Positions 11,690 through 62,598 of a DNA stretch of 64,000 nucleotides are shown one piece after another. Numbering within the stretch: the first letter of the stretch is position 1; every line of letters begins with the position of its first letter. The position numbers and the translations under genes are program-made. The DNA comes from Nemertoderma westbladi (taxonomy: Eukaryota; Animalia; Xenacoelomorpha): positions 34,175 through 98,174 of the forward strand of contig JAUCBJ010000064.1 in assembly GCA_032718475.1 (NCBI GenBank). Direction: 5' to 3'. Below the pieces are notes generated by a model. That model did not search any database and was not told where the DNA came from. It saw only the letters and a list, made by a program, of their open reading frames with translations.

Positions 11690-12247
11690 TGTGACGGGAT
11701 CCAGGAAGGATCCCGGTTTATCCGGTTGTTTAGTTCACGCGTCCCTGCCATGTGTATGAAAGGTAAAAGGAGTTCCTGTCGTTCGTCGTATATAATAATC
11801 GGTTGTACGGATATATAGATATAGGGTATATAGATATAGGCATATGAATAATGTTGTCGTATACGGAAGGCGGGTTACGGTAATTAAAGTCCCGGTCCTT
11901 CCCTAGCTAAACTAACTAACCTAACTAGCACCAATATGATACTGAGATAACTGAACTGATATGATTACTGCCAACTGGCTATATTGCACGGGTTGGCCTT
12001 GTTACTCTACCTGATCGATGCTTCCCCCCTCTGATTGGTTGATACCCTTGTTGGCGCCCTTTGGAGTGTTCCCGTTCACCCCAGCTATTCTCTCTCGGTT
12101 AGGGGTTTGGCCCCTGACCCTTATTGTTTGTTCCTCCTTCCCATTTTGTTGGGGTGACACGAGTTGGTGATTGCCCAACCTCGTGGCCCCCAATATTGCT
12201 TATCGGCTTAACTTTATGGGGTGTTAGCGGGATTGAATAAGCTAACA
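11690..12247 (-). repeat. BEL-1 3' LTR
   Basis: Direct repeat of 25638-26205; by eye about 3 substitutions plus a poly-C length difference. Confidence 0.95.
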
Positions 12248-12256
12248 CTCCTCCCC
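12248..12256 (-). other. BEL-1 polypurine tract
   Basis: GGGGAGGAG immediately upstream of the 3' LTR on the minus strand. Confidence 0.85.
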
Positions 12257-12958
12257 ATGCTATCTTCCCGGTGAGAAGATAGCATCCACCTTAAGTGCGC
12301 TACAATCCCGCTGGATCCCGATCTAGTATCGGGTGTGGGGTGGAATTCTTTTCTCTCGTAGCTGGCTTTCCAGGCCGCTCCCTATGGGTATGATAACGCT
12401 ACCCTATATGCCTGGCGTCCCATGTCGGTACGATCACGCTCATCTCTCACGCGACTTTTGTTTCCCCAACACTTTCGCCCTATCTCTTCTCCACTCTCAC
12501 CCTAACTCTCTCATACCCTCGGACCTCCTCGTCCCTCACTCAGCCTCTTATTCTCCCCCCCCACACTAGAATTCCGTCCGCACTCTCTCCGCACTTCACA
12601 CCATTACTCCGTCCCTCAACCCCACTTCGACTACCTCATCCCTTCTGACGAATCTCCCCCCCTCTTGTGCCGTCGCACTCAAGAAGTGTGAAATCGTCTG
12701 GCGTCTCGTCCATAGTGCCATAGTCAGTTATCCCCCCAGTCCCAGTAGCTAATTGAGAAAGGTTGTATGACTATAGTACTTACTCCAAACGTATATTTAT
12801 TGCTAAACTACTGATCACTACGTACGTACATATAATTGCACTTATTTAATTATTTGCATCAGCTTGATTTATACTTAATAGTTCGTACGTCCCACGCGGC
12901 GCCTTCCAGGCGTACCACGTTCAAGTCTCAGTTCCTCCCCCCCCCCGGCCCTAGGAAC

Positions 12959-15505
12959 CTATCTGTTCCTCTGGGGATAGTTCCCCCTGGCGTCCTCTTC
13001 CCTGGGTCGTTTCTTGGTTACCACCGCTCCTCTGGGGTCCGCTTTCTGCTTTCGGACTTTCGCCGCCACCTCCCTGCTGATTCCGGTTGTTGGCTCCTTG
13101 GGCGCTGGTGTTATTAGTGCCCGATATCGCTTCGCCGGTGGCCCCTCAGAGTGGCCCTGTTGTCTCCCTCTGGTGGCGTCCCATAGGATCATTTTCATTG
13201 CTTGCGGCACGTGTTCCGCCAAGAAATCCCTAAACTCCCCTCGGTTCTGTGGCGTCCACCTGTCCAAATATCTTTGTGTGTTCATCACTCCGGCATAAGA
13301 CGCTGCCGTTGCTACCTCTTGATAGGTAAACGGTAGCCTCTGCTTTATGATTTCCATGTGAGCCTCCTGATTGATAAGGAAGAAACCCCACTTGAACTCC
13401 TGGGCCTTCATGCGCTGGCGCGTCATAGCCCCGACGTCGGCCCACTCCTCGAATCTCCTAAACTTCTTCTCGTCGTCCATCCAGTCGCACTGGCGTCTGA
13501 AGTGTCCCCGAAAGTTGCACTTTGGACATCGGTTATGCAACCGTGGACACGCCCCCATCCTGTGGCTCGGCTCTCGGCAGTAGAGACAAAAGGTTCCCTT
13601 TTGGAACCGGTACAAGCAGCTCCTTTCCTGGTGGGTCTGCATCCCACAGTAGTCGCAGCCGAGTACCAATGTCTCCCGCCCCACGTCGTCCTTCGTCCCA
13701 AGCGATCTCAGCGGTCTGTGGAGTCGCTGGTAGGCAAACTTCTCCACGTTTGTGTCTCTTTCTACATCGATCTCTCCACCCCTCTCGGGCATCGTCTCCC
13801 CGAATACTATTCGTGGTGCCGTCCCCGGTTGCTCGTCCAACCTGATAGTGCTCCCCGCGAAACCCATCGCCGGCTCCTCGTGCACCCAGGTCCGCTTGCC
13901 GGATCTGTTCCAGAAGGCCCTCGCCCCACTGGCCGTCACCACCCTACCGCCAACCCAGTCCGTGTCCGAGTGGCCTATCCTCTCGATGGGCGGCATCTCT
14001 CCGAACTCGTCGTCGTCCTCCTCCTCCTCTGGCAGTGGCTTCAACCCCGGTATCCCGATGAATCCACTATGTCCCTTCCCGCCTTGGCTCTCGCCCGTAG
14101 CTCTCCATCCCTCTAGTTCCCTTAACTTCCTTGGCGGTTGGTCGCCTTCGGCGCCCGCTGGTATGGGCATCTCTCGCAACCCCGACGTCGACTGTTTCGG
14201 TGATTCCACCATCCATCCCAGTTCTCGCCCTAGAGACTCCCCCGAACTCGCTGACAAAGTCCAATGAAGTTCGTCTAGGCCTGCCTGTTCCTCGAAGCCG
14301 TAACTCTGCATCCTGGCCTCCTCTTCCCTCTCCTCTGCTTCTATCCTCTCCCTTCTAGCGACTTCTTCCAGTCGCTTTACTTCTCGTCTATCCGTCTCTA
14401 GCTGCTCCCATCTCTGATACGGCGTATCTGTCTCCCCGTCTACCAGATGTCGGCTGTTGTAGTACACCGACTCGCCCTTCAGCCCCGGGTGGTCTACCAG
14501 ACCGTCGAAGGCAACTTTAAAGGCTCTCCTGTAGCTTAGGGGTGATCCCGATAACAGAAATGCTGCTGGTTCCCTCTCGATAACCACGGTCATGAATAAG
14601 TTAAGCAAACTTATCATCATCCAGTCCTCCTGCAGGATATATCGCTTCTGATATACCTTTATCGCTCCCCTGCGGAATTGATATACCTCTTGCTTTCCCG
14701 GTCTCGCTCCCCACTTTAGCGAGTTCGCTAGTTCTGCTCCATATTCTTCCCTGAACTTCCCCCAGTCCATCGGTTTGTGGCACATGAGCCCCAATAGCTG
14801 GCCCATTGCCACCGCCCCGCATTGGCCTGTGTTTTCGACTACCCCCAACCCATCCGGTGCCGTCATAGCCATGAAGACCTTCTGAATATCCAGGAGGTTG
14901 GTGGCGTCCGGACCGATGATTCTCTCCGCATCCTCGCGAATCGCCGATCCCACTTTCGTCGTCGACTCTTCTCTTACCAGGACTTGTACCGCTTTCGGCA
15001 ACCGGTTCAATTTCGGCCCGTCCTTCTTCCCATACGTTCCTAGATCAAATAGGAAGATGTCCCCATTTGGCGCGGCCAAATGTAGGACTATGGTCCTGGC
15101 CGACCCTGCCGATCCTCGTCTCGAACCCACCTCGTCTTCCACGGTCCCCTCGTCGTCTAGGATCATATATCCTCCCCTGTTGACGGACTCTGTGAATCTC
15201 TTCCAGTCCTTTCTCGGTGATTCCCTCGGGTACTTCGGAATCCCGACCTTCGCCTCGTCCCCTTTCACCACGTAGTGGAAGTGTTGGAAGATCGCGTTGT
15301 CCAGCGACGGCGTCCCGTAGGTCCCGACCAGCCGCTGTTCGTGCATCTCCCGGAAGTGATCCTGCAGCGCTCGTGCCACGTGACCCCTTTCCAACCTCTT
15401 GTAGTATCCTCTCGTCTTCTCTTCCGGATGCCTCTCGGTGAAATCCACCAGTATCTCCTTTCCTCCTGACTCCGCCTTTCTCTTTCTGATCAATTTGCTC
15501 GCCAT
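12959..15505 (-). CDS. BEL-1 accessory protein: DEDDy-type (WRN/EXD/Mut-7-like) 3'-5' exonuclease plus 3 CCHC zinc knuckles, 848 aa from the first ATG
   Basis: Uninterrupted ORF; ExoI ILDDEG, LHLAAPNGDIFLFDL, LPKAVQVLV...KVGSAIRED (ExoII), LLDIQ, ExoIII-like YILQED; knuckles CDYC..H..C, CLYC..H..C, CPKC..H..C. Confidence 0.8.
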   Translation of the reverse strand: MASKLIRKRKAESGGKEILVDFTERHPEEKTRGYYKRLERGHVARALQDHFREMHEQRLVGTYGTPSLDNAIFQHFHYVVKGDEAKVGIPKYPRESPRKDWKRFTESVNRGGYMILDDEGTVEDEVGSRRGSAGSARTIVLHLAAPNGDIFLFDLGTYGKKDGPKLNRLPKAVQVLVREESTTKVGSAIREDAERIIGPDATNLLDIQKVFMAMTAPDGLGVVENTGQCGAVAMGQLLGLMCHKPMDWGKFREEYGAELANSLKWGARPGKQEVYQFRRGAIKVYQKRYILQEDWMMISLLNLFMTVVIEREPAAFLLSGSPLSYRRAFKVAFDGLVDHPGLKGESVYYNSRHLVDGETDTPYQRWEQLETDRREVKRLEEVARRERIEAEEREEEARMQSYGFEEQAGLDELHWTLSASSGESLGRELGWMVESPKQSTSGLREMPIPAGAEGDQPPRKLRELEGWRATGESQGGKGHSGFIGIPGLKPLPEEEEDDDEFGEMPPIERIGHSDTDWVGGRVVTASGARAFWNRSGKRTWVHEEPAMGFAGSTIRLDEQPGTAPRIVFGETMPERGGEIDVERDTNVEKFAYQRLHRPLRSLGTKDDVGRETLVLGCDYCGMQTHQERSCLYRFQKGTFCLYCREPSHRMGACPRLHNRCPKCNFRGHFRRQCDWMDDEKKFRRFEEWADVGAMTRQRMKAQEFKWGFFLINQEAHMEIIKQRLPFTYQEVATAASYAGVMNTQRYLDRWTPQNRGEFRDFLAEHVPQAMKMILWDATRGRQQGHSEGPPAKRYRALITPAPKEPTTGISREVAAKVRKQKADPRGAVVTKKRPREEDARGNYPQRNR

Positions 15506-16942: not shown

Positions 16943-19900
16943 TCACTCGGAGTAAGTGCTTACATCTCTCGCCAACCGCCATTGGTTGTTGATGATAGTA
17001 TCATCCGTGACGATTACGAGATCTCCCTCTCTTAACTCCCTGTTCGGCTTCCTCCACTTGCTTCTTTTATGGAGTGTGGGTAGGTATTCTTCTACCCACC
17101 TCCTCCAATACTCTGCGCTTATTGCTATAGCGACTTTCCAACTCTGGCGGGAGTGTATATCATCTGGGTCTACACCCCGCATATCGATGGTCGCTGGCCT
17201 TTCCATCAGAAAATGGCTAGGCGTCAGCACGTCTAGTGACTCAGGGTCATCATTCTCCGGATATAGCGGTCTGCTATTAATGATCCCCTCGCACTTCGCA
17301 AGCACTGTCCGTAAAACGTCCTCAGTGACCATGTGGGTGTTCATTAGCTTCGTCATTAGACGCTTTGAACTGCCCACCAGTCTCTCGACGCATCCTAGTG
17401 TATGTGGTGCATACGGCGTCCTTTTCTCCCACTTAACTTGTCGTCATCTCATGGTCGCCATGACTTCCTCCCCTTCCAAGATGTCCAAGGCCTCTGCCAT
17501 CTCATTCTCTGCGCCCACAAAGTTTGTGCCGTTGTCGCTGTATATCACTGCGATCGTCCCACCTTTGCGGTCTCTGAACCTTTCCAAGGCATTAATGAAT
17601 GCTGATGCGGTTGCATCTTGGGCGAGTTCTATCCCTACCGCCCGCGTGTTGTTACATACGAAGATGATACCGTAGCGTTTCTCCGTGTGCCGCATCACCT
17701 TGATCTTTATCGGCCCGAACATGTCCACACCGCAATGCGTAAATGGCGGGTCGTGCTGTCTTACTCTACTCGCTGGTAGTGGCGCCATCTCTTGTATGGC
17801 TCGCTCCTTCTTCGCTCGTCGGCAGGTCTGGCACTGCCCCACCACCGCTTCTACCTTCTTCCTCAACTGTTTGACCCAAAAGGTCCTCCTTATCTCTGTG
17901 AGAGTTCTGTTGGTGCCCCCGTGCAATATCGACTTGTGGGAGTCCCAGATAATCTGGTGAACTATTGGCGCTCCTGTTGGAATGATGATGGGTTTCGGTG
18001 GTATGATTATGCTGTTGTTGTATCCCACCCTAGAATTCATTACTAGAATCCCGTCGTCATTAAGTTGTGGCGACAGCGCGATCAGCTCGCTGTCCCGTCG
18101 AAGGTGTTGTTGGTTACCAACGCGTTCCACCTCGTCGCCATAGTTCTTCCGTTGTTCATAGCGGATGACTGCCTTGGCCGCTCCTTCCAGATCTATGTAT
18201 GTCTTGATCTTCTTGTCCTTGCCGACTCCCGCGAGGAAATTCCCGAAGGCTCTCCAGTACGCCACTAGTTTCTTGGTCTTATACCAACTAGAACTGTAGC
18301 TGAGGAGTTTATCCGTCGGGTTATCACACAGTTCTCGTCTTGGTTGCACGTCCCTAATCTCCCTCACCATCTGGGAGTATATCTCTTCTCCCTCTGAATC
18401 TCCTTCTTCTCCCTCTGACACTACTTCTGAGTCCGGATCCACCTTTCTCATCGGCGGCCAGGCCTCCTTATCGCTCAGAAATTGTGGCCCATGTTGCCAC
18501 AATACTTCCTTCTTCAAGAAAGTGTGGCGTACCACGCCCCTCGACAACAAGTCCGCTGGGTTCTCGTCTGTTGGGCAGTAGTGCCACCTTTCCAGTTCTG
18601 TGGTCGCCCTTATTTCGTCCACTCTATTTGCGACGAATATTGGGTATCTCGTCCTTTCGTTATGTAGCCAACCAAGCACTACCATGGAGTCCGTCCAGTA
18701 GTGTGTCTCCACTATGTTGGGAATAGTATCCACTAGGTAGGCTGTGGCTCTAACTCCTAGTCTCGCAGCTGTCAATTCTAACTTGGGAACTGATGCTGAA
18801 TCTGGCGGCGTTGACTTTGCTTTGCTAAAGGCTAGTCTGGGTTTATGAGCCCCCTCTCGTTGTACTAAATAGAGTGCCGCTCCGTACGCCTCCAACGACG
18901 CATCGGAGAACATGTGTAGGTCCAGATTCGTCATGTTCCCATCCGGGAAATACACTCGTGGCATGTTGTATGTTCCCATCTTCTCCAAGTCTCCTGTCCA
19001 CTTACTCCACTGTTTCTTGATTTCCTCTGGTACCTCTACGTCCCACTCATCCTTCAATTTGTATACTCTCTTGAGTATCTGTTTCCCCGTGACTAATAAT
19101 GGGGATGCTAGGCCTAGGGGATCGTATATCCTTGCTATGTACGATACATAGCCCCTCTTCGTGTGGATGTCTGCGCCCTCCTGGCTCAGCTGATACTTCA
19201 GTTCGTCTGTCTCTCTGTTCCACACGATTCCCAATGCCTTCTGTTGAGATTCTGTTCTCTTGTTCGCCATGTCCTGCCCTTTGGCTGTTGTGGGATTATC
19301 CATGGTCGATTCTGGCCTCTTGTCCTCTATCGCCTTGATAAATTCTTCCGAACTGGATTGGAATTTGGTCAGGTTAAAGCCGGATCCTTTTAGGATGTCG
19401 CGAACCTCGCGCCCCATGTCCAGTATCTCCTTAACCGTATTTCCAGACTCCATTCCGTCGTCTACGTAGAAGCCGCGTCAAATCATATCGACGGCCCTAC
19501 TGCTGTATCTGTCTTCCTTCCCCTTCACTGTGTCTCTCACTGCCATAGTCGTCGTAAATGAAGACGACTTGGCCCCCATGTTTTGTACTACCATCTTATA
19601 TGCCGGTATTATCGACGGTTCTTCCTCGCCGTTATACCATAAGAAGCGTTGACTGTCGCTATCTTCCTCCGTTACACGGACTTGGTTGAACATGCCTTCT
19701 ATGTCACACGTGAAGGCGTGTTTCCCATTTCTAAAACTAAGTAGGACCTCTATGCCTGAGTTGTATATGTTTGGGCCTTCTAACAGATAGTCGTTTAAGC
19801 ATTTTCCGTTGGTCTTTGCCGATGCGTCAACCACCATCCGCAGTTTACCTTTCTTTGGGTCTAAAGCCACGTGGAGTGGCAGGTAATATGTCCTGTCCGT

Positions 19901-21553
19901 GTTCGGTTCGTCGACCGGTAACTCCACGGCCCATCCTTTCTCGACGTACTTCTTAATCGTTCTGTGGATGTACTCATTCTTCTCGGGGCTCCGTTTTAGT
20001 GTTTGTTTCATCTTGCGGAGTCTCGTGAGTACCATCCCTCTATTATCGGGCAGCGGTATCTTCGGTAGTTTCCATACCATTCCTATAGTATACCGCCCCT
20101 CATCGCATGTCATCGATTCCTCCACGCTTTGTAAAGCCTGCTTGTCTTCTACCGAGGTCCCGACCCCGGTTTCTTTCAGTCCCTCGAAATCTTGTCTGAG
20201 CAGTCTTTTAAGCTGCTCCTCTGCTCCCTCATCACCCATTTCCTGCATTGTTCCCGCGAACATGCATCCTGATGTCTCCGACATCCTAAATGGTATCTTG
20301 CTCTTGATTGGGCCACTCAGCGTCCACCCGAATGGTGTTAATATCGCCACCGGGTCACACTGCTTGTCTTCGCCGAAGACCGTTTTCATTCTTTCGTGGG
20401 CCGTTGGGCAGTCCATTCCCACTATGATGGATACCTTCCTAACGTCCACACTTGGGATTGAGAAGTCAATGTCGTCCAGGAATTTATATTGCTCGACCTC
20501 GATGTTGGTTGGCCGCCTGGCATTGATATTAATTGACTCTATCACTTGGATGGGGTCGATGGTTGCCCCGTAGTCGCACCCCGGTGCCACAGCTGCAATT
20601 GCGCACCGTCCTGTTCTCATCTCCAGGATCTCATCTTTGCTAGAGATGGTTGTTACCGCCATTCTGCTTGGCCTCGTTCTCAATCCTATCTCTTCGGCCA
20701 CCCATTCCTCGACTAATGTGAAGGCAGCTCCACTGTCAACCAGCATTAGTGTTGTTACTGATCGATTGCCTTCCCCAATCACTCGCACGGGTACTACTCC
20801 AAGTAGCACCGTTCCTCTCTTCTTCGCCCCTTCTGTGCTCGTTGCCATCGTTTGGCCTCTCCTTTGACCGAACTTTACCGGCTTCTCCTTGTATTCCCTA
20901 GCTCTATGTCCACTCATCACACACCGTGAGCAGATTTTATTGCTCAACGCATAATCTATCTGATCTTGCCTAGATAGCGCCTGCCAGTACCTGCAGTTCA
21001 TGGTTTGATGAAGCGCATTTGCGTGTAGCTGGCATTTGCTCTTTGGGTCGTAGCCCTCCTTATACAGCGCATTGCGTATCGCAGCTGCGTTTGTTCCAAA
21101 GTCCCTACTATTCTTATTGTTTGCATTCGGCCTACTGGACGTACTGGGGTTATATTTATTCGTGTTGTTATTGTTCCCCTGTCCATTCCATGGTGTGGTC
21201 TTACCTTCGGCTACCTGTGGACTTGCAGTCCCCTGCGTCGCTGCGTATGGCAGCGATTGCCTTAGCTTTGGTAATGCGTTTGATGTATTATGCTCTGGTT
21301 TCGGTCTATGGTAATCCGTCTTTGGTCCCTTTCCCAGGCTATCTTCGCTATAGACTGGGTCGGTTATTAGTTCTGCTTCGTAGTTTAGGAAGTTTGACAT
21401 TTCTTCTAAACCCGGTTCCGCACCCTTTCTATCTCGAGTGGTGAAGGCGATTTTCCTCCACTTGTTGCGCAGCCGGATCGGTAGTGCCTGCACTATCGTG
21501 GTGATGTTATTGGACGCGTTGAGCTCGTATGGCGCGTCTAGCGTCTTTAGCAC
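16943..21553 (-). pseudogene. BEL-1 gag C-terminus and pol (aspartic protease, RT, RNase H, integrase), disrupted
   Basis: LVDSGA protease; CDIEGMFNQV and FYVDD RT (in-frame TGA at 19478); FSDAS...AYGA, YWTDS, NPAD RNase H; H..H..CQTC, GVDMFGP, SDNGTNF integrase; frameshift near 17445. Confidence 0.92.
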
Positions 21554-21813
21554 GATTAGCGCCTTTTCGACTTTGTTAGCAAATGTCTTAATGCTAACCC
21601 GATGTTATGCCTCTCAGTGTTTGCCTGATGATCTTGGCCGGGTGCCCGTATTCCCTGTCCAGTGCCCGCCATGCTGTCGTGAAGCCGCCCTCTATGCCTT
21701 GATATTGCCTCACGATATCGTATGCTGGGCCTCCCATGTATACTTGGAGATATTTTAGGCACTCCGCCTGCGTTAAGTTCTTTGTTAGTATTTCGTTACT
21801 GTACATACGCCGA

Positions 21814-21941
21814 GCACCAGTTAAATAACTGGGAGCAAAACTTGGGATAGGAGTAGCGCCCACCCCTACCCTCGGGTAGCAGCTATCGAAAGAGGAGCCT
21901 TCGGTTCGCCTCCGGCCTCGGCCGACTGTTTGCTTTTTGCT
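21814..21941. mobile_element. 128-bp structured insertion in BEL-1 gag with a 12-bp TSD
   Basis: TACATACGCCGA at 21802-21813 and 21942-21953; removing the insert plus one copy restores QFRRMYSNEIL. Confidence 0.85.
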
Positions 21942-23317
21942 TACATACGCCGAAACTGTAGATATTCTTCCGGCCTACTCCCATCGAATTTGAATGGTTC
22001 CACGGGCGGTAATTCGATCCTCGTTTTCAACGCATCGATTAACGTGGCCATCCCCATCGCCTGCGCTTCCAATGGGTTCGATGGGTGTTGTATGGTTTCT
22101 CCCGTCTGGTGCTGTCGGTCCGTCCTATTTCCTGATTTCCTTTGACTTGGGTATGTCATTGGGGGTAGCGGCCCCCTCCATATTTCTGTGTCACACGACC
22201 TATTTTCATCCAAGGGACTCGCTGTCCTTGCTCCTATCGGGGTATATTGTTGATATTGTGATGGGGGAATGTCACCCTGTCCCCCCCCACCAGTATGTTT
22301 GGTACTGGGGTTGATGTTAATATATTGGGGCCCATGCATCTATCCGCAATAATTCCCCCCTCCCCTGGGTATATGTTATATCCTTTGGTGCTGTAGTCAT
22401 ACTGCTGCACTGGTACCGGTATAGGCCTATCCGCTTCTGGCCTACCTACCGGAATGTATTCCGCGACTTCCGGGTTTAATCCCGTCGTCCGCGCTATCCT
22501 ATCGCCTACATTGCCTCTGTCAGCATGGCCTATGGTATGTGCAGTAAGGCCTACAGTATGTCCTACAGTCTGTATGTGTTGCTCGGGATCGAAGTTTATT
22601 CTTCTCGAATAATCCTCCCCGCGGCTACCGTATTCTCGATCGGCAGGCATATCCCGTCGGAAAGTTTCTCTTCGACCCCCTCTACTGCTCTCATCTTCGT
22701 GCCGGTACATCATGTACCCCTCTCTCGACGCTTAGTGCGCCTCGTCGGGTCGCGTCTCTCCGGGGCGACGGCAATCTCCCGTAGTTCGACTCCAGCGACT
22801 CTCTCCTTCCATCTCAACTACCGACGGCTCACTATCCGTCCTCGCTCTTCTATCGTTTGCGGCGATACTTCTCCTACCGTCTTCTCTTCTTCTTCTATCA
22901 GTGCAGTATTCCCGCTCGTGAGATCTCTCGTCGACCTCCCGGTTAAACTCCACTGTTCTTATTCCCTCTTCTGATCGGGCTCGACGCTCCGTCCGCCCTC
23001 TCGCGACGTCAACCTGCCTCTCTCTGCTCGATCGCACGCCACTGGGGATACTCGCGATCCCCCTATTACTCTCCGTCGCCGGGTGTTGCGGTTTACCTAC
23101 TTCGGCCCGCGCATTATCCGTTGACGCCTGCGGGGCACTCTCTGCCCCCCCCCCCCCCTTTCGCCGCTAACTTGCTGTTGTGGGGTTCCTGTAATCCCCC
23201 CCCCATTCGCCACATCTAACTTCGCTATCTCTCGCTCCGCTGCTATATCCCTCTCTAGTCGACACATCAACCCTACAGCGGCTGGGTCCATTCACCCCCG
23301 CCCCTCCCTCTGCTATT

Positions 23318-23492
23318 GTGTGGCCTACCAGGCCCTCTACTCCCTGCCTACCAACTACGTGGCCTACCAGGCCCTCTACTCCCTGCCTACCAACTACGTG
23401 GCCTACCAGGCCCTCTACTCCCTGCCTACCAGCTACGTGGCCTACCAGGCCCTCTACTCCCTGCCTACCAGCTACGTGGCCTGCCAGGCCCT
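23318..23492. repeat. 39-bp tandem repeat (~4.5 units) in BEL-1 gag
   Basis: Unit GTGGCCTACCAGGCCCTCTACTCCCTGCCTACCAACTAC, encoding GLVGHVVGRQGVE on the minus strand. Confidence 0.9.
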
Positions 23493-25628: not shown

Positions 25629-25637
25629 TTTAATTAC
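25629..25637 (-). other. BEL-1 primer-binding position, non-tRNA type, complementary to its own LTR
   Basis: Minus-strand GTAATTAAA abuts the 5' LTR; the minus-strand LTR contains TTTAATTAC (25828-25836; 11880-11888). Confidence 0.65.
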
Positions 25638-26205
25638 TGTGACGGGATCCAGGAAGGATCCCGGTTTATCCGGTTGTTTAGTTCACGCGTCCCCGCCGTG
25701 TGTATGAAAGGTAAAAGGAGTTCCTGTCGTTCGTCGTATATAATAATCGGTTGTACGGATATATAGATATAGGGTATATAGATATAGGCATATGAATAAT
25801 GTTGTCGTATACGGAAGGCGGGTTACGGTAATTAAAGTCCCGGTCCTTCCCTAGCTAAACTAACTAACCTAACTAGCACCAATAAGATACTGAGATAACT
25901 GAACTGATATGATTACTGCCAACTGGCTATATTGCACGGGTTGGCCTTGTTACTCTACCTGATCGATGCTTCCCCCCCCCCCCCCCCTCTGATTGGTTGA
26001 TACCCTTGTTGGCGCCCTTTGGAGTGTTCCCGTTCACCCCAGCTATTCTCTCTCGGTTAGGGGTTTGGCCCCTGACCCTTATTGTTTGTTCCTCCTTCCC
26101 ATTTTGTTGGGGTGACACGAGTTGGTGATTGCCCAACCTCGTGGCCCCCAATATTGCTTATCGGCTTAACTTTATGGGGTGTTAGCGGGATTGAATAAGC
26201 TAACA
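25638..26205 (-). repeat. BEL-1 5' LTR
   Basis: Direct repeat of 11690-12247, upstream of gag. Confidence 0.95.
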
Positions 26206-37485: not shown

Positions 37486-37520
<35 letters not shown>

Positions 37521-39744: not shown

Positions 39745-39780
39745 TAAAGAATTATCCTATTCATTTACTATTTTACGTAC

Positions 39781-48351: not shown

Positions 48352-48429
48352 CCGCTCCCAGAAAATGGGATTTAAGTCTATAAAATATAACAAATCACAG
48401 TTTCTAAAATATAAAAATACTCTAAACAG

Positions 48430-50625: not shown

Positions 50626-50644
50626 GGTAGCGCATTCGCTAGCA

Positions 50645-52625
50645 TTAGGTAGGTAGATACTTTAAATATTGTGTGGTATATGTTTCCACATCTCCATATC
50701 GTTGTATTCTTTCTTCCTCGAATAACACGTCAAGATTCCAGTGTAATAAACGAGTTTTGATGAATCCATCAAGATTATACGGAGGTATTGTTTCTTTCTC
50801 TATTCTGGAAACATTGTATGGTTTTCGAAATGAGTTTATTTTAACTAACTGATCCAGATGTTTATGCAGTTGTTCGAGTTCGACAAGATCGAGAGGATTT
50901 ATGAGTGGCAGAAACCTCAGACTATGTGTAGGATCTTCCGGTTTTACCATGTAATATTGTGTTAGGTTGACGTAATAAGGGTGATCTTTGATCCCATAAA
51001 ACGAGTCCGGTAAAGGTCTAGCACATATGTTTACATCGTGTACCATGCGACGGACAAGATCCGCTCTATTGTCCGGAGGTTCAACGAGTATACCATCGAC
51101 ACGAGCGGCTTCGATGGGCGGACGTTGCAACATGGGAGCGTCAGCGATAAGATCTTGAGATCTTAGGTTGATATCAACCGGTTGGGGTTGTACCGTCGCA
51201 AAGAGTTTGTCTCCAAAATGGGGAACCATCGAGGGATGAAGGATGGTTTTAGAGTAGAGATCCGTCATAAGGATTTGAGCTTCGGGTTGAGCTAAAGCTG
51301 CTTCTTCTCTCTCACCCATTTCTATATGTCTCTCCTCGAGCTGATTTTCCTCCGCTTGTTGTTGTAGACGCTCATCTAGGAACTCTTGTAAAGAGTAGGT
51401 TCGTCCACGTTCGATGTCCTCCTCGAGATTTTGTATTTCTCTATCGAACTGGGGTAAAGCTAATTCCTTCACCGCTTGGACTTGTTGCAATTTACGTTTC
51501 TCCAAACTATCGTAAGTTCCCTTTCCGATTTTCTGCCGAATAGCGTCTAACGCGTTTCGTACGACGCTCTCTTCGACTTCCGTAACGGGTTGTATCGAGG
51601 TGAAGCCGGGACGGTTGTGTGGGTTAAACGGCGATATTAGATGACCGCGTCCCAATCCAGCTAGGTAGGGTTGGCGAATATCTAGTGAGCCTACTACCAG
51701 AGTGCCACCGATCAACTGTTCGGGTAACACTAGATCTTTGAACAGCGAATACAGTTCGGGAGGATCCGTGATACTATTAGGATCAAGAGTCTGAGGTCTA
51801 ACTGAGGAATGAGGAGGTCTGACCGAGTATTCCGGAACTCTGATCATTGGTTTGTTCAAGGATCGTTTGAGTCGAGCGACTGTAGGGGATACGTCGAACA
51901 GGTTTCGCTCGAAACTCCCATAAGTATATCGTGTAAAACTGTGTTTAGCGCAACGTCTCCGCGGATGTTTATGTCTTTCCGTTTGCTGATTGGGTCTAGG
52001 GCACTCGTCGCAGTAATACCAAAGACGCACGTCCTGCAGGGGAAACGCGGGTGATCGTTCTCCAGCTTTACAATATTCCTCCATCTGTTCGAAGCTATCT
52101 GGGACGACAGGTAGCGGTCGATCGGCGGTAAGATACATCATAGTGAAATAGAGTCGTTTGAGTTCTATCATAGGGTCATGATGTATACCTTGAGGATATC
52201 AAGTTTCGAGATTTTGTTGACTGGCAATATTGAGGTATGTCTCTCTCAGGAATTCCAGATAATCGTTGAAGTCGCTGCGTTTATCCGGCTCTTCAACGTC
52301 TTCCCTTTCGAGTCTGTTTCTAATATTTAAATAAAACCATTTCCCTTTCGGTGTCTACGTCGTCCGTATCGTGTAAATCGATAGGATGGCCAGTAGTTAA
52401 GAAGTCCATATACGTACCATTACGATGCGTATAGCGAGCGGTGAACTTTCTATAATCCAATTCACGCGTAAGTTGCTCCTGGGACATTGGCGGTTCGATA
52501 TAACGACCATCATCCTCCGTAGTAGTTGGACCAGCGTCGCCGCGTATCAAGCTATCGACAAATGCTTGTAAAGGTAGAGTATATCGCTCCCTGATACCAA
52601 GATCATCTTCTATCAACTCAGTCAT
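50645..52625 (-). pseudogene. BEL-2 accessory protein, N-terminal extension of unknown function (ORFs 52320-52625 and 50645-52171)
   Basis: Joins the exonuclease ORF after correcting a 1-bp indel (~52322), one TGA (~52200) and a 4-bp ACCT duplication (~50648); has a CDEC...H...C..H motif and a coiled coil. Confidence 0.65.
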
Positions 52626-54459
52626 ATCTGCTATGAGTTTATCAATATTATAATGAGTTTATATATTAGGCTAGCGGGCGTCGCTGCCTACCCCTCTTTT
52701 GCCCCCGGACAGTGTAAGATCCTCAGCGCCGATGTACCGTCGTCGCTGTGCTTTCGCCAACGATGTAGCTACACAACGACAACGATAACCGGCACAAGTC
52801 ACTCCACTGTCCGTCCCAAAGGCTTAGATGTACTTCAGGTTCTTTCTGGAGAGTTAGGGCTACTTTCACAATTGCGACTAGCTACTGTAAACACACTTTA
52901 GCAATAACATTCACCTATGAACGCACAAATTCAACACAACTGCCACAAACCGCACACATTCGGGCCATTTGTCCGTTAGTCAGTACCTTCCAGAATGTCA
53001 CTTTATTTATTATGTATCCTTGGATACTAGCAGTGCGCTATTTATTCCCTATGCTATTCAATGGGGCAAGCTTTCTATTGTTCTTTTAACTCACTTCTAA
53101 TTCTAGCGTGGTTGTTGCTATGGTGACATTATGGAAAGCTAGCGGTAGAATTAGGGTAATTCTCATGCATACAGATCTGGGATGCTATTTAATAGTAATT
53201 CTTTAATTGTCAATATCCTCTCTATATATGATTTTATGAATTTTATCGGCTATTGACTATATATTGGAGATTCTCGCACACTAATACACTTAATAGAGTG
53301 AATCTCCGCTCCCATGATCTATTAATTAATGGAATTTTGGGAATGTTATAAATTGTATAAAATGACAATTTATTAAATTCATTGAAATATATGAATTTAA
53401 ATTTATTCCCGTAAATTTTATTATTTAATGTTAAATAGACACAATTTTATTCCAGAACAAGTCTAGGGACTGGGATCCTTGATTCTAGGAATTTTGTCCT
53501 TTTAAGAGTATCGGTAAGTGCTACGATATCTTAATCGACTAGAATTTTAAAGGATCTAAAATTTCGACAGATTTTATAAATATTAATAATTAATATTTAG
53601 GATGGGCACCAGTTTATTCCAGAACTTGTCGGGGACATTAACCACTGATTCTAGAATTTGTCTTTCAAGTATATCGGTGGGTGCCGCGATATCTTAATCG
53701 ACTAGAATTACAGATGGTCAAAGGGTTTAACAGATTTATTTTGCGTTATACGCTACTGTTAAAAGGACATCACGCTACTATATGTATTATTTAATATACG
53801 GTATGAGAGCAATATCGCACGAAGCAATGTCAGTGAGAAGAGGCAAGTCGTTTCCAAGGTCTACCCAGAGCTTGGTTTAGCCGAGACACGAGGATCTGAA
53901 TTTTGCATTCCTAATACTCTGCTTTACCAATAATACTTGAATATAGTAGGAGCTTTATTGTACTTTAATAAGTACGGATATTTCGTCTTACTGTAGTTAC
54001 GTATTTGTAATGTAATACAGACAGTAAGGAAGGAGGAAAAGAATTATTTCTCGCCATCGCACTAAATATATAATATATAAGTAATTAAGTAATAAACGCG
54101 AATATATATTGCACTAATCTACTAAATAATCGCTAAAATAACATTCTACTAAATAAATTAAAGAAAACGATTATAATAAAATTACATAATAATACATACA
54201 TAATATAAAATAATAAAAATGAATATAAAATAATATAGTCACACACCCACTCCGTATGTTGTTACGTTATGGAGTCCCTAGATATTTGTTGGATTAGGGA
54301 GGTGGTCGTGGGAAGAGTATCTTGTCTTCCATAGTTTCCGGAGAGTTCTCTGTCTCTTTCCAGTAAACATAAGCGACCAACTGGGCGATTGAGCTGCTGT
54401 GTCTCGAAGACAATTCCTGGTTTCTTGAAGTTGCGTCGCATGACGACGAGTTCTACCGA

Positions 54460-55830
54460 TCACACCAAACCGTCATCCGAGATGTGAGTCTCGATGATAC
54501 GACCTGTCTGCCACCGCTTAAGTGGAAGATCTACATCCACAATAAGAACCATGTCTCCAGCGCTGACGTTTTCTTGCTGCGCAAACCACTTAGTTCGAAG
54601 TTGTAGCGTGGGCAGATAATGTTTTTCGAAATGGTCAGCGAAACGACGGGATAACAACTGCATGAGTTGCCAAGTTTGCCGGCAGTATTCGTCTCCGTCT
54701 GTGATTTCCGATTGTGGGAGCATGGCTACAGGTTTCTTCAGTAGGAGGAAGTGCGCATGTGTTAGCGCTTCCAGGGAATCGGGACTCGATGAGACTGGCA
54801 TAAGCGGTCTCTCGTTGAGATAGGCGGCGATTTCCTCCATTAACGTCCGCAAAAGTTCGTCGGTGAGATACGTGCGGCAAGGCACTATAAAGTGAAATGC
54901 TGTCTTCACACTTCTTATTAATCTCTCCCAACTTCCTCCCCACCAAGGGGCATCGGCGGCGTTGAAGGTCCAGCTAGACGCTGTTACTCGTAGCTGATCG
55001 TCCACCTGTCTTTGGTTCCAATCTTTGACGTAAGCTTTGATTTCATTGTTGGCACCAATGAAGTTTGTTCCCTTATCAGATCTCATCGTGTTACTAGTGC
55101 CAAAGCGAGCGATCTGTCGTCGTAAGCTTAATAGAAAGCTGTTGGTAGATAAATCGTTCACCATATCGAGATGGATAGCTCTACAAGTCATACAAACAAA
55201 GATGACACACCATCTCTTGACTATAGTCCTAGCATGATATACTTCAATAGGGCCAAATAAATCTACACCGGTATTAGTAAAGGGTGGTTCATAGAAGCTT
55301 ACTCGTTCCCTAGGTAATTCTGCCTCTCTCTGTGTTAAAGGCCTACTGAATGCTTTCCTACAGGGTATGCAGTTCCTAAGAACTTGGTTCAGAGCTCTAC
55401 GGGGTTTATAAAAATAATAGCGAGTTCGAATTTCGCTAAGAACTCGTTCTCTACCAGCATGATAAAGTTTGCTGTGAACATCTACAATCATCTTGACTTG
55501 TATCTCAAGATTTCTAATGAGTATGGGAAACTTAGTGACAAAGGATAATGGAGCATTCGTTAATCTTCCTCCAACACGTATCAACCCATCTATCATTGTG
55601 CTAGAGAAACGATCCCTTAAGTGCATCTGCGGATTTCTCAACAACAGGAAATACTTATCGGAATCCTCATAGCATTGCAGGAGTCTCAGCATCTGCTTGT
55701 TGGTTTCTTCATGCTCCTGATAACTGATCTTCTCCTTCAGAAACCTGTCGGATATCTTATATTTGGGAAGATCTTTAATAACATGGACCTGCACCGATGT
55801 TATTGGAGCGGTATCAAACGGGTCTTCCTA
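54460..55830 (-). CDS. BEL-2 integrase
   Basis: GLIRVGGRL, H..LYH..CIPC, TGVDLFGP, SDKGTNF, APWWGGSWERL, YLPTLQLRTKW. Confidence 0.92.
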
Positions 55831-58724
55831 GAAACGGGTTTCTCACTTACCTTGTTTTCCGGTGTCTTCTCTCTGGACTGTTTTAGGAGCTGTAATTTCA
55901 CTTCTCCATCTAAGAATGACATGAGATCAGCCATGGTAGGGTCTCGTCGTTGTTGTTCCATCATATATAACACTTTCTTATCCCAGCGTGTACCTACTCC
56001 ACCCTTCGGTAAAGTAGAAGCCACGGCTCCAATAACCATAGAACTCTGATATTCATGAGACTTACCTAACCAATCTAATTGTCTACAGATCTCTTGAATC
56101 TCATCGGAAAACTCTATTATCCCGCTGCTAATGAACTTTCGGGGCACTACTAATTTTGCATACAAATATTTAGCTATGTTATTCCTATTACCATACCTGA
56201 TGTTTAGTGTATCCCAAACTTGTCTTAATCCGTCTGGATGTCCAATAAACTTTAACGCCATTAACTTGGGAGATCCTTCCAAGCACTCGGTGAGGAATCT
56301 AAGTTTCTCTCCATTAGATAGTACAGAGTTCTGTATGTTATCTTTATAATATTCATTAAAAGGTAACCATTTCATCTCATCTCCATTGAACTTGACTATC
56401 TCTCCCACCTTTACCGCTTGACGGGCTTCGGTTCTAGCCATTTGACGCGTAAAGCTTTCTTGGGCCATCGTGTTATTTAATATCGAGTTATCGGTATATA
56501 AATTTCTCGGATTATGATCAGGTCTATAGGGAATATCATTATCAACAGGTCTATAATTACCCTTAATAGGGTTCACTATAGGAGTTTCTACTTCGCTAGC
56601 AGTATATATGCGTGTAGGCTCCACACCTTGCGATTGAAATACTTCAGACCTAACAGGTTGACACATTGTTACCGGGGTTGCTGGTATACCCTTTTGTGTA
56701 TTTACTAATTTATCGCGTTCTAACGCTATACTTTGCTGCACTTCTTGCAACTCTAACCTACTCTCTCTAATTGTTCCCTTTAACTGCTGCACAGTTCCCT
56801 CCATCTCCTGGGCCTGCTGAGAGGAGCGAGAATGTTGTTCCCTCAGCTGTCCGAGCAGGAGACCCATCTCCCGTCGTCCCTCATCTACCCACTCGACCGC
56901 CGAAGAGGGAGGCGCCAACGTTGTAGCGGGCGGACGAGGGACAACGGGCGACAAGTCATGAATATTTCACTCGGAGTCCAGGACAGGAACAATTTCAGGG
57001 GTGGTTCTGTGGGGCACAGGTAGCTTCGTGCTGTGCAGAGGGAATTTAGAGGTAGGTTCAGGGAGTACAGGTGTCTCTATCACCAAAGGGGTGGCTTCGA
57101 GAACAGGCCTAATTATTTCAGGCTCATCTACTATAGTAGGGAGTCTTTCTATGTTAATTATTTGGTCTGTGGGTTCTGTACTACCTAAGTCTGTGCTAGC
57201 TAGTTGTCTTCTAACAGCTGGGGGCAAATCAGGCAATTTCTGACGGTGGGACATTCTTTTACGTCTGCTTAGGCGAGATCGATTTCCTCCGCCTTCAGGA
57301 TCGGTGGTATCGCCTTCCTCAGATGATGTATATCCCTGTCTTTTGGGAGTTGATCGACTCATCATCTGCATATTACTAGCTGTTAACTGTTTATTAAAGT
57401 TGTCTTGCTTCTCTTGAAGATTTTCCAACTCTAGTTGGGTTGTCTCTTCAGATGCCCTCTGTTCTGCTTCTGCCACTGCCTCTGCCACTGCCACTGCCGC
57501 TTTTCTTTCCGCTTCTGCCGCTGCCACTGCTGCTGCCACTGCCGCTGTCTTTCTATCTTCTATACGTTTTTTCTTTACTTGTTCTTCTTGAACCTTAGCG
57601 ATGCGGATGCTTTCATCAAATTTAGCTTGATTCGCAGCTATCCTATCCACATCAATTGCGTCCAACACAAGCTTGGCTCCTTCACTATTAGGGCTAAGTC
57701 CCTCTAGTCTTCTCCTCAACTTTTCATCTCCTACAAAACGTTGATAGTCCGACAGATAGATGTCAATAGCATCCCTCTTATGCGGTTTCTCTGCTGTCGC
57801 TTCACTTTCCACTTGGGAAAATGTAGCGTCTGTTGATTCTCCATGGGTTGAGCGCTCATCCAGTTGAACTTTCCACTGAGCCGTTCCTTGAACCTGGAGA
57901 CTCACCCGTTGAAACCAAGTCTTTACGGCAACTTGCAACGACGTGTCTTGTCTTCTTTTAGAAGCCTCCTCAAAGGCCGATAAGATTAGCCTGATTCGCA
58001 GAATTCTTTCTCTAACTTGATAAAGCAGCTGTCCCTGCTCTTGAGGTCCTTGGGGTTGTTGAAACAGTTGTTCCTTTAATCGCTCCATAGAGCTGAAGAA
58101 TCCCTGTACGTATCCGGCTGCGGACCTCTTCCACACAGCTGGATCGATGGTTTCCTTGGTTACTCCCATCCTGTGTATGTCTTCCCAGGCAGCTTCTGAT
58201 AAATCAAACGGGAGTCCGGGTCCGGGGAAGTTCCATTGCGACTCGACAATAGACTTCAGTTCTTCCCTTGTGTATCCCGCATAACTATCTTTAGTCGATC
58301 GCTTATTTCTCGCCCAATCGATCTGGTGTTCTTCCACCACAATCAATAACCTAGTGAGTACGGCTGCAGGAAGGATGAGAAGGGGGTCCGAATAAACCGC
58401 ATCTGTCATCTTTGCTCCGTGCTCGGTTGTCAGCTCTACAGTATCCGCACTACTGGAGCTGTCGGGCCGCTGAGAAATAAGTTCTTGGCTCGCGGGTAGT
58501 TGCTGTTCTGCTGCTTCTTGGTCCCGCTTGACCTGAGCTCGAGTGCCTATGATAGACCTACGATGTTGGACTAGCCTAGGGTCTGATATTACTACTGGAG
58601 GGATGATCTTTCTTACAGTAGGAGGTGAGTTGAACTTCGGTCCCACACGTTCCACACTCCTGTCTGGGTCACATATGGTTGTATCTAGGAGACTGTCTGA
58701 TAGGTTTTGTTTCGTGTCAGACAT
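55800..58724 (-). pseudogene. BEL-2 gag (one in-frame TGA at 56967)
   Basis: KFNGDEMKWLPF...EKLRFLTECLEG...VWDTLNIRYG Pao-gag pattern; ORFs 56967-58724 and 55800-56954 are in the same frame. Confidence 0.85.
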
Positions 58725-58849
58725 GTTGATTTGTACAGTTGAATGCCTACTGCTATATTACAGTTTAAGCAAGTCTAGTAATTCAGTATCACTGTTAGCC
58801 TAGTAATTAATTACCGATACTGCTACTCAGTGTAGCGTGATATATATAT

Positions 58850-61209: not shown

Positions 61210-61780
61210 AAATATTACGCTACGCGTACAGACTACTCAAACAAAATGCAGACCAAATACTGACAGACTACTATCAAACCCAAACAAACTACGGTATATG
61301 CAGACTCCGAAATGATTAGTTAGTATGCGTTCTAACCGAGTAGTACGACTTATTCTTTCGAGGGGGTTTACCTCACAGCTCTGTAAGCTCCTACGTTCCC
61401 AACTGGCACTTTATCGGACATACACTCTGCACACACCGAAATCTCTTCAGACCTAACAACAGCCAGGCAAAATCCAGCCTACAAATTGTCTAAATAAGAA
61501 ATATTACGCTACCCGTACAAACTACACAAACAAAGTACAGACCAAACGCTGGCAGACTACTATCAAGCCTAAATAAACTACAGTATATGCAGACTCCGAA
61601 ATGGTTAGTTAGTATGCGTTCTAACCAAGTAGTACGACTTATTCTTTCGAGGGGGTTCACCTCACAGCACTGGCAGCCCCTACTTTCCTAACTAGTACTT
61701 TTTCGGACATACGCTCTACACACACTACAGTCCCTTCAGACTTAACAACAGTCAGACAACAGTCCAGCCTACAAATTATC
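61210..61780. repeat. ~288-bp tandem duplication in the BEL-2 leader
   Basis: AATATTACGCTAC...CAGCCTACAAATT occurs twice with scattered differences. Confidence 0.85.
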
Positions 61781-62107
61781 TGTACAATCTGAGCAGGCTT
61801 ACACGCCTTCTGCTCAATATTGACCTACAAATAAATAAAACTTGACAGAAATAAGTAAAATCTCAATAAAAAACCAGGGCAGGCCCTCCCTGATTCAATA
61901 TTAAGGCCTACCGGTATATAATTATCAAATCGAATAATACTGCTGTACCTGTACTGCTGTAGGTACCGGTCCGGGTGGTTAGGTAGTCAGGCCAACTAGG
62001 TACCGGTTGTCCGGTACTTCAGCGTCATTGCCTACTGCAATACAGAAGCTATATCTGTTATTGTTCTTACCAGAACAATAGACAACTATATCTTCTGATT
62101 GTACGTA

Positions 62108-62119
62108 TATATCTGTTAT
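62108..62119 (-). other. BEL-2 primer-binding position, non-tRNA type, complementary to its own LTR
   Basis: Minus-strand ATAACAGATATA abuts the 5' LTR; the minus-strand LTR contains TATATCTGTTAT (47905-47916). Confidence 0.7.
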
Positions 62120-62598
62120 TGTTCGCGCTTTCAGACCTTTAGCAGTTTAACCTGCCAAATTGGGATGTCTTTTAGATGATAGATAGTCTTTAGCCTATGA
62201 CAAGTATTTGATACACTACATTAGCCGAAGCCAGTCTATGTGCGATCATTCACCCGCTGGATATACCCGGGAGACTGGATTCGGAAGCCTAACCGTATTG
62301 CGGGGTAGGCCTACTGTATTATTCGACTGATCGTAATATATAATCTCTGACAAATATTATTCACTTTCGGGAAATATTAACAGTTCCTTTAGGACGTGGC
62401 GCTCTAAATATGTAAACAGAGTTATGACTTAAACTAAAAACAACGGGATGGCTATAGATTCACGTATATGGCGCATTCTTTAGGAGATGCTTTGTTATCA
62501 GTCACAATCATACACAATACTGCACAATGCTGCACACCGATCTGCCGACCTTCACTAATTTTAGTCACATATAAAGAGAACAACAGACAATACATGTA
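62120..62598 (-). repeat. BEL-2 5' LTR, inner part only
   Basis: Matches 47187-47665, then breaks at TA. Confidence 0.92.

Follow-up and report, generated by a model that had tools for sequence, protein, structure and literature searches.

The window considered here (the whole 64,000-nt stretch of DNA that was analysed) raises the question of whether BEL/Pao retrotransposons can start reverse transcription from their own RNA, and whether an exonuclease encoded by the element takes part in the process. The original prediction proposed both for two elements, referred to below as A and B, whose features are collected in Table 1.

Two defective BEL/Pao elements and a solo LTR

Element A, as judged from its sequence, is a defective BEL/Pao retrotransposon spanning 14.5 kb. 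Several stops and frame changes interrupt its gag-pol; in Pfam, the Peptidase_A17 match has an E-value of 1e-40, and the pol region has 1012 homologs at E<=1e-30, with PF05380 present in all 120 among the matches listed. The LTR pair differs by 3 substitutions and a 10-nt difference in a G-run, and the 5-bp target duplication contains 1 mismatch. Element B (span >15 kb) is also a defective BEL/Pao retrotransposon, in which the protease, RT and RNase H are absent according to Pfam and the reading frames of the element. Its 5' LTR has lost the part with the promoter and the complementary site, no target duplication was seen, and the unnamed reading frames may represent a disrupted front part of the gene that includes the nuclease ORF. 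The shortened 5' LTR and missing enzymes of B and the broken gag-pol of A are caveats beyond those raised in the original prediction.

The LTRs of A and B gave no blastn match to each other, as expected from the lack of evident similarity noted before. Solo LTR C is flanked by a perfect 5-bp target duplication, and a contig with the empty site exists. At first the LTR of B was taken to be only 480 bp long and to begin with a G-U-rich match; this was dropped because its length is fixed at 1165 bp by the polypurine tract, the empty-site contig and solo LTR C. A putative, motif-based intron was noted in the B LTR (LTR 607-1133), downstream of the complementary site; one run from another organism, guessed to be RNA, gave no GT..AG joint when compared with solo LTR C, a result that is silent on expression.

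Table 1. Positions in the window of the features of elements A and B and of solo LTR C
Feature	Position	Strand	Remarks
A 5' LTR	25638..26205	-	568 bp, TG..CA
A 5' LTR promoter motifs (predicted)	CCAAT-like 25996-25989, TATA-like 25933-25927, initiator-like 25907-25898	-	
A LTR site complementary to leader +1..9	25828..25836	-	candidate self-primer; 3' LTR copy 11888-11880
A PBS-position sequence	25629..25637	-	leader +1..9, flush with LTR end, without TGG
A second leader stretch	25600..25616	-	can pair co-linearly with LTR 25861-25849
A gag-pol, BEL/Pao type	16946..25568	-	DUF1759, aspartic protease, YVDD RT, Peptidase_A17, integrase, DUF5641
A extra ORF	12959..15505	-	open from ATG, 848 aa; putative DEDDy-like domain ~15229-14480
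A knuckles, three CX2CX4HX4C	13657-13487	-	
A polypurine tract	12256-12248	-	adjoins 3' LTR
A 3' LTR	12247-11690	-	
B 5' LTR remnant	62120..62598	-	last 479 bp only
B PBS-position sequence	62108..62119	-	leader +1..12; second copy 58 nt on, 62061-62050
B gag-integrase	54265..58757	-	gag (DUF1759) leading straight into integrase and DUF5641
B unnamed reading frames	50648..52658	-	112, 51 and 517 aa; upstream of nuclease ORF
B extra ORF	48430..50661	-	743 codons stop to stop; putative DEDDy-like domain ~50607-49852
B knuckles, three CCHC-type	49359-49162	-	
B polypurine tract and 3' LTR	47187..48359	-	
B 3' LTR, full	48351-47187	-	1165 bp
B 3' LTR promoter motifs (predicted)	CCAAT-like 48073, TATA-like 48036, initiator-like 48012	-	
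B LTR site complementary to leader +1..12	47905..47916	-	in 3' LTR; candidate self-primer
Solo LTR C	40528..41754	+	relative of B, 83% in aligned columns

Pairing of the leader with the LTR in A, B and other BEL elements

Neither leader contains TGG in its first bases, and no tRNA gene was found in the 64,000-nt window. In both elements the sequence at the PBS position is complementary to the element's own LTR: the match is a 9-nt exact reverse complement in A (p=0.004 when the LTR was shuffled 2000 times by dinucleotide; p=0.011 when the leader was shuffled) and comprises 12 nt in B (p=0.0015 with LTR shuffles; p=0.003 with shuffled leaders), where it was read from the 3' LTR because the shortened 5' LTR no longer has the site. 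With respect to predicted start sites, the complementary site lies 66-71 nt after the initiator-like motif in A and 96 nt after it in B. The missing TGG, the complement and its distance of ~70-100 nt from the predicted start of the transcript are thus all as originally described. By the rule of at least 10 nt of complementarity for self-priming, taken from the relevant part of PMC6317226, B is above the threshold and A is 1 nt short of it.

The 9 paired nt of A are AT-rich, the energy of a 12-nt duplex is reached by 8/200 shuffles, and the whole 40-nt duplex, with the second leader stretch, is not significant alone (19/200 shuffles equally stable). Folding of the 5' end at equilibrium gives a pairing probability of 0.001 each for A and B as they stand. 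The AT-rich match of A and the shuffles that reach its 12-nt duplex energy would suit the view that the matches in the window, at least that of A, are due to chance or are relics and that the extra ORF does not encode a nuclease; we regard this view as very improbable, since the pairing is present in both elements and, as detailed below, in 10/11 relatives.

Sequence variation in the B family was also considered. The corresponding site of solo LTR C (41028-41039) departs from that of B at the base opposite leader +8, and a leader +8 variant fitting solo LTR C, predicted in advance, exceeds all other variants listed for the primer site, with 15%, 10% and 11% of the contig depth in the runs X1, X2 and X3, respectively (the fourth run, X4, is without coverage there). 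This variant is unphased relative to the LTR change. A second leader variant, for which no partner change is known, occurs at +5 and accounts for 2-4% of the depth; the longer pairing expected in other copies of the B family was not found.

The controls consisted of 22 BEL elements from other sources, of which 11 have a leader that starts with TGG and 11 do not (the latter are referred to as self-type), and therefore a tRNA-type PBS is not family-wide in BEL/Pao. The best matches between leader and LTR were 11, 14, 8, 11, 11, 11, 11, 11, 10, 11 and 11 nt in the self-type elements vs 4, 5, 5, 5, 6, 6, 4, 6, 4, 7 and 3 nt in the TGG elements, i.e. pairing of at least 10 nt (10-14 nt) in 10/11 vs 0/11 (Fisher p=3.4e-5). 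This comparison includes four self-type elements with the LTR end set by eye and a splice filter that was loosened after an initial look; under the stricter filter used first, 8/11 pair. In 8/10 of the pairing controls a predicted GT..AG junction in the LTR, with a consensus-like donor, has to be joined for the match to be complete, which suggests that the pairing takes place at the RNA level. Two leader positions distinguish the sister elements L033 and L034, and their LTRs carry the corresponding changes. At equilibrium, the pairing is favoured in 3/11 controls (mean pair probability >0.8). Self-priming in BEL elements is thus supported, and more broadly than had been claimed. As to further relatives, no BEL relative was found in viral contigs, metagenome contigs provided one 1.5-kb BEL piece, and a wider search of 541 genomes returned few additional matches, mostly short.

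The pairing could also be a conserved RNA structure involved in packaging, dimerisation, translation or poly(A) control, with a host RNA, e.g. a tRNA half, acting as the primer. Priming by half-tRNAs is known in copia lineages (as described in part of PMC6317226), the fungal element GalEa has a hairpin where the PBS would be (according to part of PMC5445492), and 7/13 self-type sites start with GT, a common start for which a host primer could account. However, the 13 sites are otherwise unlike and each fits only its own LTR, while the pairing begins 0-5 nt from the LTR end, at offsets equal to those of TGG sites, and is mostly 11 nt long. We therefore consider a host primer distinctly unlikely.

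Quick pol trees, calculated without bootstrap and without an outgroup, bear on the origin of the trait. The 30-row tree separates A, B and 9 self-type controls from 7 TGG elements (SH-aLRT 99) and does not reject a sister grouping of A and B (p-AU 0.56); with 45 rows, A is placed outside the clade of self-type elements. The two elements may represent a single lineage, and the co-occurrence of pairing and extra ORF may therefore be a single event.

The extra ORF and its relation to the primer site

As predicted, both elements carry an additional ORF with CCHC knuckles downstream of pol; each ORF has three such knuckles. The two proteins are similar to each other according to BLASTP (E=3e-7 for the knuckles, E=0.056 for the nuclease part) and, at 25% identity, keep acidic residues at four candidate catalytic positions, sharing D-x-E-G and the ExoII D. 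By eye, the ExoIII position in both looks like Y-x3-E instead of the Y-x3-D of the family, with Glu, not Asp, as the fourth acidic residue. The DEDDy part of the prediction was missed by Pfam (no nuclease match at E<=0.01 in either ORF) and was detected by weaker methods. ESM Atlas, as one source, assigned PF01612-type clusters to both domains (0.94 and 0.92; 25/30 matches), and hhalign aligned them to the DEDDy family with a probability of 68 and E=5e-5 (score 36.9 vs <=19.0 in 40 column shuffles), although it backs ExoII only and places the first motif off the D-x-E-G stretch. Both AlphaFold2 models have a pLDDT of 34. No nuclease match was obtained with phmmer or in the PDB, where one knuckle match (E=0.48) was reported. 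Searches for extra-ORF homologs of near length, comparison of the first 367 aa of A with 1.84 billion representatives, and tblastn of the extra ORFs on the first 39 loci revealed no homolog, and a profile of the A and B nuclease domains matched nothing beyond A and B in 3992 reading-frame segments. The absence of Pfam, phmmer and PDB matches, the low pLDDT and the displaced hhalign motif fit the view that the ORF is not a nuclease; the ESM Atlas clusters and the hhalign score relative to shuffles argue against it. Altogether, there is moderate support for a DEDDy-like exonuclease domain.

The tie between exonuclease and priming, central to the original prediction, is not supported as an obligate one. 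In 10/11 self-type controls only 42-767 nt separate pol from the 3' LTR, with stop-free stretches of <=142 codons (the 11th is cut off by a contig end), i.e. there is no room for the gene, and the two traits are unlinked in this direction; hence such a PBS does not require the element to encode an exonuclease. None of the 11 TGG elements carries the exonuclease either, so the enzyme may still assist priming in A and B. The extra ORFs of three TGG elements were considered as counter-examples and rejected: two are baculovirus-F-like and none is nuclease-like. Since related elements show the pairing without the exonuclease, the gene is probably optional cargo in A and B.

Such assistance could take the following form in an A/B sub-branch: either the 3' copy of R or a short LTR RNA with a poly(A) tail would serve as primer, and its tail would be trimmed back to the duplex by the exonuclease that the element encodes, or by host enzymes in relatives without the gene. 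In line with this, both carriers of the exonuclease have a self-type PBS, the gene is found in 0/11 TGG controls, and the candidate catalytic residues are kept despite the divergence of the two putative nucleases. AATAAA lies 0-33 nt after the site in 7/11 self-type controls, which would leave little tail to remove, while A has none after the site and the first in B follows at 476 nt, so that a longer tail might need help; besides, a junction-spanning site would separate spliced from unspliced copies of R. On the other hand, either model needs the site to be followed by a poly(A) signal, 10/11 self-type relatives have no room for the gene, the number of independent cases may be 1 if A and B are one lineage, and similar cargo occurs in the rotifer elements Juno, Vesta and Athena, where priming differs or, in the part of PMC5408684 drawn on here, is unexamined. 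We consider such trimming by the element's own enzyme rather unlikely. The same degree of doubt attaches to its generalisation, by which a large animal BEL/Pao branch has left tRNA priming and uses its own R copy, the 3' tail of which is degraded as far as the PBS duplex. On this view the majority of members mark this copy by splicing and borrow host trimmers, and A and B, with an unspliced site and a far poly(A) signal, have captured an exonuclease-knuckle protein. An element with its own primer and its own trimming enzyme as a tight system would be most striking if true, and it is a minority reading here.

A model of self-priming and comparison with known systems

The lack of a tRNA site together with the match to their own repeat suggests that A and B likely start copying with their own RNA. 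The leaders of A, B and 10/11 self-type controls match their own LTR at the LTR end, and we consider it probable that A and B belong to a broad BEL branch which primes itself with ~11 bases of its own RNA, and that the exonuclease is cargo. According to this self-priming model, the LTR site would lie inside the transcribed R region, anneal to the PBS and gain a free 3' end. Cleavage as in Tf1, by the RNase H of the element itself, is slightly preferred over trimming of the 3' or a separate short copy, because the length equals the 11 nt of Tf1 and the relatives need no extra enzyme. Copying of the primer during plus-strand synthesis would rewrite the PBS in every cycle and keep both sites matched. 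The extra protein would bind element RNA via the knuckles and trim 3' ends, perhaps for clean-up of RNA or cDNA ends or for interference with small-RNA silencing.

The ICTV description of Belpaoviridae specifies an 18-nt PBS for a host tRNA, a length of 4-10 kb and env as the sole third gene (PMC8742986), so that host tRNA priming is part of the reference description of the family. A and B share with it the LTRs, polypurine tract, gag, the PR-RT-RH-IN order and the BEL-specific Pfam families (B without PR-RT-RH), and differ from it in the missing tRNA PBS, the sizes of 14.5 and >15 kb, and the nuclease-like/CCHC gene. In the literature searched we found no description of self-priming in BEL. 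If true, it would mean that such BEL elements offer no tRNA site to silencing by tRNA fragments.

Self-priming is described, in the excerpts cited, for Tf1/Tf2, Tf1/sushi (Ty3/gypsy) and Tj1, where ~11 nt of LTR RNA from the element itself form the complement of the PBS, and is predicted for plant Tcn1 and the copia element TAR (PMC7175516, PMC4600332, PMC6317226). As in Tf1/sushi, A and B have an LTR complement at the PBS position and no tRNA site; unlike these elements, their pol is of the BEL/Pao type, not Ty3/gypsy or copia, the site in their relatives often spans a predicted splice junction, and it lies 66-96 nt inside the predicted transcript, whereas the Tf1 primer consists of the first 11 bases. 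No chromodomain match was found with Pfam in A or B. A primer site made by splicing would couple reverse transcription to RNA processing, and if half of the sampled BEL elements are self-primed, none of the three LTR superfamilies would lack an origin of this mechanism. GalEa (copia) also has the tRNA site replaced by element-internal pairing, but its partner lies downstream in the leader, with no LTR complement in the account consulted (part of PMC5445492), while that of A and B lies in the LTR.

Exonuclease cargo has already been described in the literature for rotifer elements of the Ty3/gypsy type. The bdelloid rotifer elements Juno, Vesta and Athena/Terminon are described as carrying an RNase D-like DEDDy ORF3 after pol, with an altered acidic motif and in some cases a Cys-His motif, for which a role in 3'-end processing was suggested, its activity being unshown; the part of the paper used here makes no mention of a PBS or self-priming (PMC5408684). 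Compared by description, the additional, putatively RNase D-like ORF of A and B resembles ORF3 in its position and altered acidic motif, and differs in its BEL/Pao context, its three retroviral-type knuckles and a candidate motif D-E-D-E vs D-E-E-D. The putative exonuclease-knuckle gene would thus carry nuclease cargo from the rotifer elements over to BEL, and it provides a concrete substrate to test.

Elements A and B and the solo LTR C

Self-comparison of the window revealed two pairs of minus-strand LTRs, which belong to the defective BEL/Pao retrotransposons A and B, and one related solo LTR, C (see the table). The gag-pol of A is of the BEL/Pao type and is disrupted at several points, while gag of B continues directly into integrase and only the final 479 bp of its 5' LTR are left. 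C is 83% alike to the LTR of B, and its ends are fixed by a contig from sequencing run X1 that omits exactly 1232 nt at this position (the empty site). The contig depth on C is ~1000x that of its flanks, a value that is not a copy number but indicates that the C/B family is very abundant. The palindrome in the long leader of B (the sequence following the 5' LTR) is likely a separate foldback insertion.

Features of the window, with candidate primer sites, repeats and neighboring elements
Feature	Position	Strand	Remarks
Element A	26205-11690	-	TG..CA LTRs nearly identical; purine tract; 5-bp target duplication with one mismatch
A, candidate LTR primer site	25836-25828		pairs with first 9 nt of leader
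A, 39-bp array	23281-23514		in gag
A, 36-bp tandem array	15970-16698		between pol and extra ORF
B, 3' LTR	48351-47187	-	full, 1165 bp
B, candidate LTR primer site	47916-47905		pairs with first 12 nt of leader
B, repeated 12-mer	62062-62119		primer-site motif, recurs 58 nt further in leader
B, palindrome	60049-61102		1 kb, near-perfect; 507-nt arms, 95%
B, tandem duplication	61200-61781		289 nt; adjoins palindrome
Solo LTR C	40528-41754	+	target duplication perfect
Integrase-like frame	41755-42300		decayed; adjoins C; Ty3/gypsy in look, by eye
LINE-type EN-RT	30329-33853	-	open 1174-codon frame with PHD finger
LINE-type EN-RT	33633-36821	+	
LINE-type EN-RT	44430-47217	+	end overlapped by 3' LTR of B
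30-bp tandem array	42795-44427		about 50 units; Pro/Ala/Ser-rich open frame, joined to start of LINE endonuclease-like frame

Probable primer sites of A and B

Neither leader starts with TGG, the beginning of the usual host-tRNA site, and both pair with the own LTR, as stated in the original prediction; in both elements the pairing begins at base 1 after the LTR (A: p=0.004, 2000 LTR shuffles; B: p=0.0015, LTR shuffles). The LTR sites are found 66-71 nt (A) and 96 nt (B) 3' of initiator-like motifs preceded by CCAAT- and TATA-like boxes, in agreement with the proposed ~70-100 nt, the start sites being predicted from motifs only. We regard these observed features of A and B as real.

The site in C mismatches that of B at the base opposite leader position +8. 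Leaders matching C were predicted beforehand, and the +8 change was found as the largest listed primer-site variant in the three runs that cover this position (X4 does not), with 14,697 of 99,043 depth in X1, 11,405 of 116,245 in X2 and 24,519 of 226,751 in X3, where X1 and X3 represent one sample and the counts are unphased relative to the C-type LTR change. A smaller variant at +5 (2-4%) has no known partner change. Most B-family contigs diverge from the leader of B past +11 or +12, hence the pairing is no longer than this in other copies. In B, the LTR complement resumes for three bases behind the first copy of the 12-mer once a 2-nt slip is allowed, which hints weakly at over-copying from the primer.

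Control BEL elements and kinship

As controls we used BEL elements from inside prokaryote genome bins (38 loci and 26 further stretches, four of which duplicate earlier loci), taken to be animal contamination. Host contamination is suggested by the many GTDB bins behind L002-L039 in which complete animal-type BEL retrotransposons occur. For 22 elements both an LTR end and a leader could be determined; the remaining loci had no usable LTR end, and eight near-copies of TGG families were left out (L027, L031, L032, L035, L036 and L038, with a best match of 5 nt each, as well as L042 and L046). With a match defined as at least 10 nt at leader offset 0-5, one GT..AG LTR intron allowed, 10 of the 11 non-TGG controls pair with their own LTR vs none of the 11 TGG controls (Fisher p=3.4e-5; per-element p 0.0003-0.003, shuffled leaders). 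The exception is L029 (8 nt, p=0.04). A stricter acceptor filter, applied first, passed 8/11 non-TGG elements. LTR ends were placed by eye in L003, L006, L008 and L015 (4/11); the seven non-TGG elements with pair-defined ends score 11, 14, 8, 11, 11, 11 and 11.

A splice junction is required for 8/10 matches, each with a single GT..AG solution and a consensus-like donor. Removal of the intron predicted in the LTRs of L008, L014, L015, L018, L033, L034, L055 and L006 (e.g. L033:1000-1770) completes an 11-14 nt match, and no extra gene was seen in these eight elements. There are at most 10 independent cases, since L033 and L034 are one family; between these two, two positions at the junction have changed in step in leader and LTR.

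The self-type site (a non-TGG site pairing with the own LTR) was proposed to be tied to an exonuclease encoded 3' of pol. The controls do not support an obligate link: the gap between pol and the 3' LTR is only 42-767 nt in 10/11 non-TGG controls (the sequence of the eleventh, L015, ends 892 nt past pol), so that such a site can do without an exonuclease gene in the element. A profile built from the two nuclease-like domains (A and B), weak as it comprises two sequences, found no other match in 3992 segments. L009:4231-4947, an ORF without a Pfam match, lies between BEL pol and a 1202-codon frame and could represent cargo of the BEL element or ORF1 of a LINE; its DGIHP motif is typical of SGNH/GDSL esterases. 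The TGG-type L047, L048 and L049 exhibit two additional ORFs after pol, one for a Ser/Arg-rich protein and the other env-like, with a baculovirus F match in L048 and L049.

A 45-row pol tree unites B with all 11 self-type controls at SH-aLRT 93; A, with a long branch and odd composition, lies outside this group. With 15 rows dropped, both are placed on the self-type side vs 7 TGG elements (support 99), and an A+B sister grouping is not rejected (p-AU 0.56). Thus, the traits common to A and B may reflect one inheritance, as judged from unrooted quick trees in which B is represented by integrase only.

The extra ORF, possible priming routes and known systems

The extra ORFs of A and B contain three CCHC-type knuckles each and a common N-terminal domain (25% identity). 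No nuclease match came from Pfam or PDB, nor from a full phmmer scan or two word-seeded searches. In the ESM Atlas the domains of A and B group with clusters of PF01612-type 3'-5' exonucleases (0.94 and 0.92), and hhalign against ten aligned bacterial PF01612 domains gave E=5e-5 (score 36.9; the highest of 40 shuffles was 19.0). A and B have D-x-E and the ExoII Asp in common, while the ExoIII position is Glu in both (by eye). Of the DEDDy exonuclease/CCHC protein initially proposed, the knuckles are present, and the domain is likely "DEDDy-like", a putative exonuclease.

The comparison demonstrates pairing, its position, a length near 11 nt and matched changes; self-priming in this BEL branch is quite probable. 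The LTR site would lie within R and act as the primer. Because both control LTRs retain the intron, splicing would have to act on one R copy and spare the one that is copied. A spliced 5' R copy could fold onto the PBS and then be cut; alternatively, the primer could come from a 3' R copy or a separate short one, spliced in either case and trimmed from its tail back to the PBS duplex. We slightly prefer folding and cutting because of the 11-nt length and because no additional enzyme is required, but a 5' hairpin was predicted in only 3/11 controls and in neither A nor B as they stand. Trimming leaves room for the exonuclease initially proposed, in a helper role: AATAAA occurs within 33 nt past the site in 7/11 controls, but not in A or B. 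An obligate combination of self-primer and exonuclease across BEL is unsupported, as controls pair without room for the gene. It is unlikely that the predicted exonuclease matures the primer of A and B; it might just as well serve in cDNA end clean-up or counter small-RNA silencing.

The C. elegans element Cer7 is reported to encode its own tRNA-like primer. Our literature search, which covered few subscription journals and neither Repbase, GyDB nor supplements, found no self-primed BEL element or BEL exonuclease. By term counts, the main texts of three BEL surveys (PMC3118150, PMC6238403, PMC554778) mention neither PBS/tRNA priming nor an exonuclease; the supplements of PMC3118150, outside this count, hold element sequences relevant to the self-priming claim. 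The consulted passages of PMC5445492, PMC6934838, PMC8220671, PMC13524379, PMC12440569 and PMC3286476 contain nothing on either. According to ICTV, Belpaoviridae are primed by host tRNA (PMC8742986). Self-priming is described as demonstrated for Tf1 in the consulted parts of PMC7175516 and PMC4600332, and as predicted for plant Tcn1 and TAR in those of PMC6317226; rotifer LTR and Athena elements carry DEDDy ORF3s, according to portions of PMC5408684 and PMC6431247. The cut of a folded 5' R copy would resemble that of Tf1, where it is made by RNase H.
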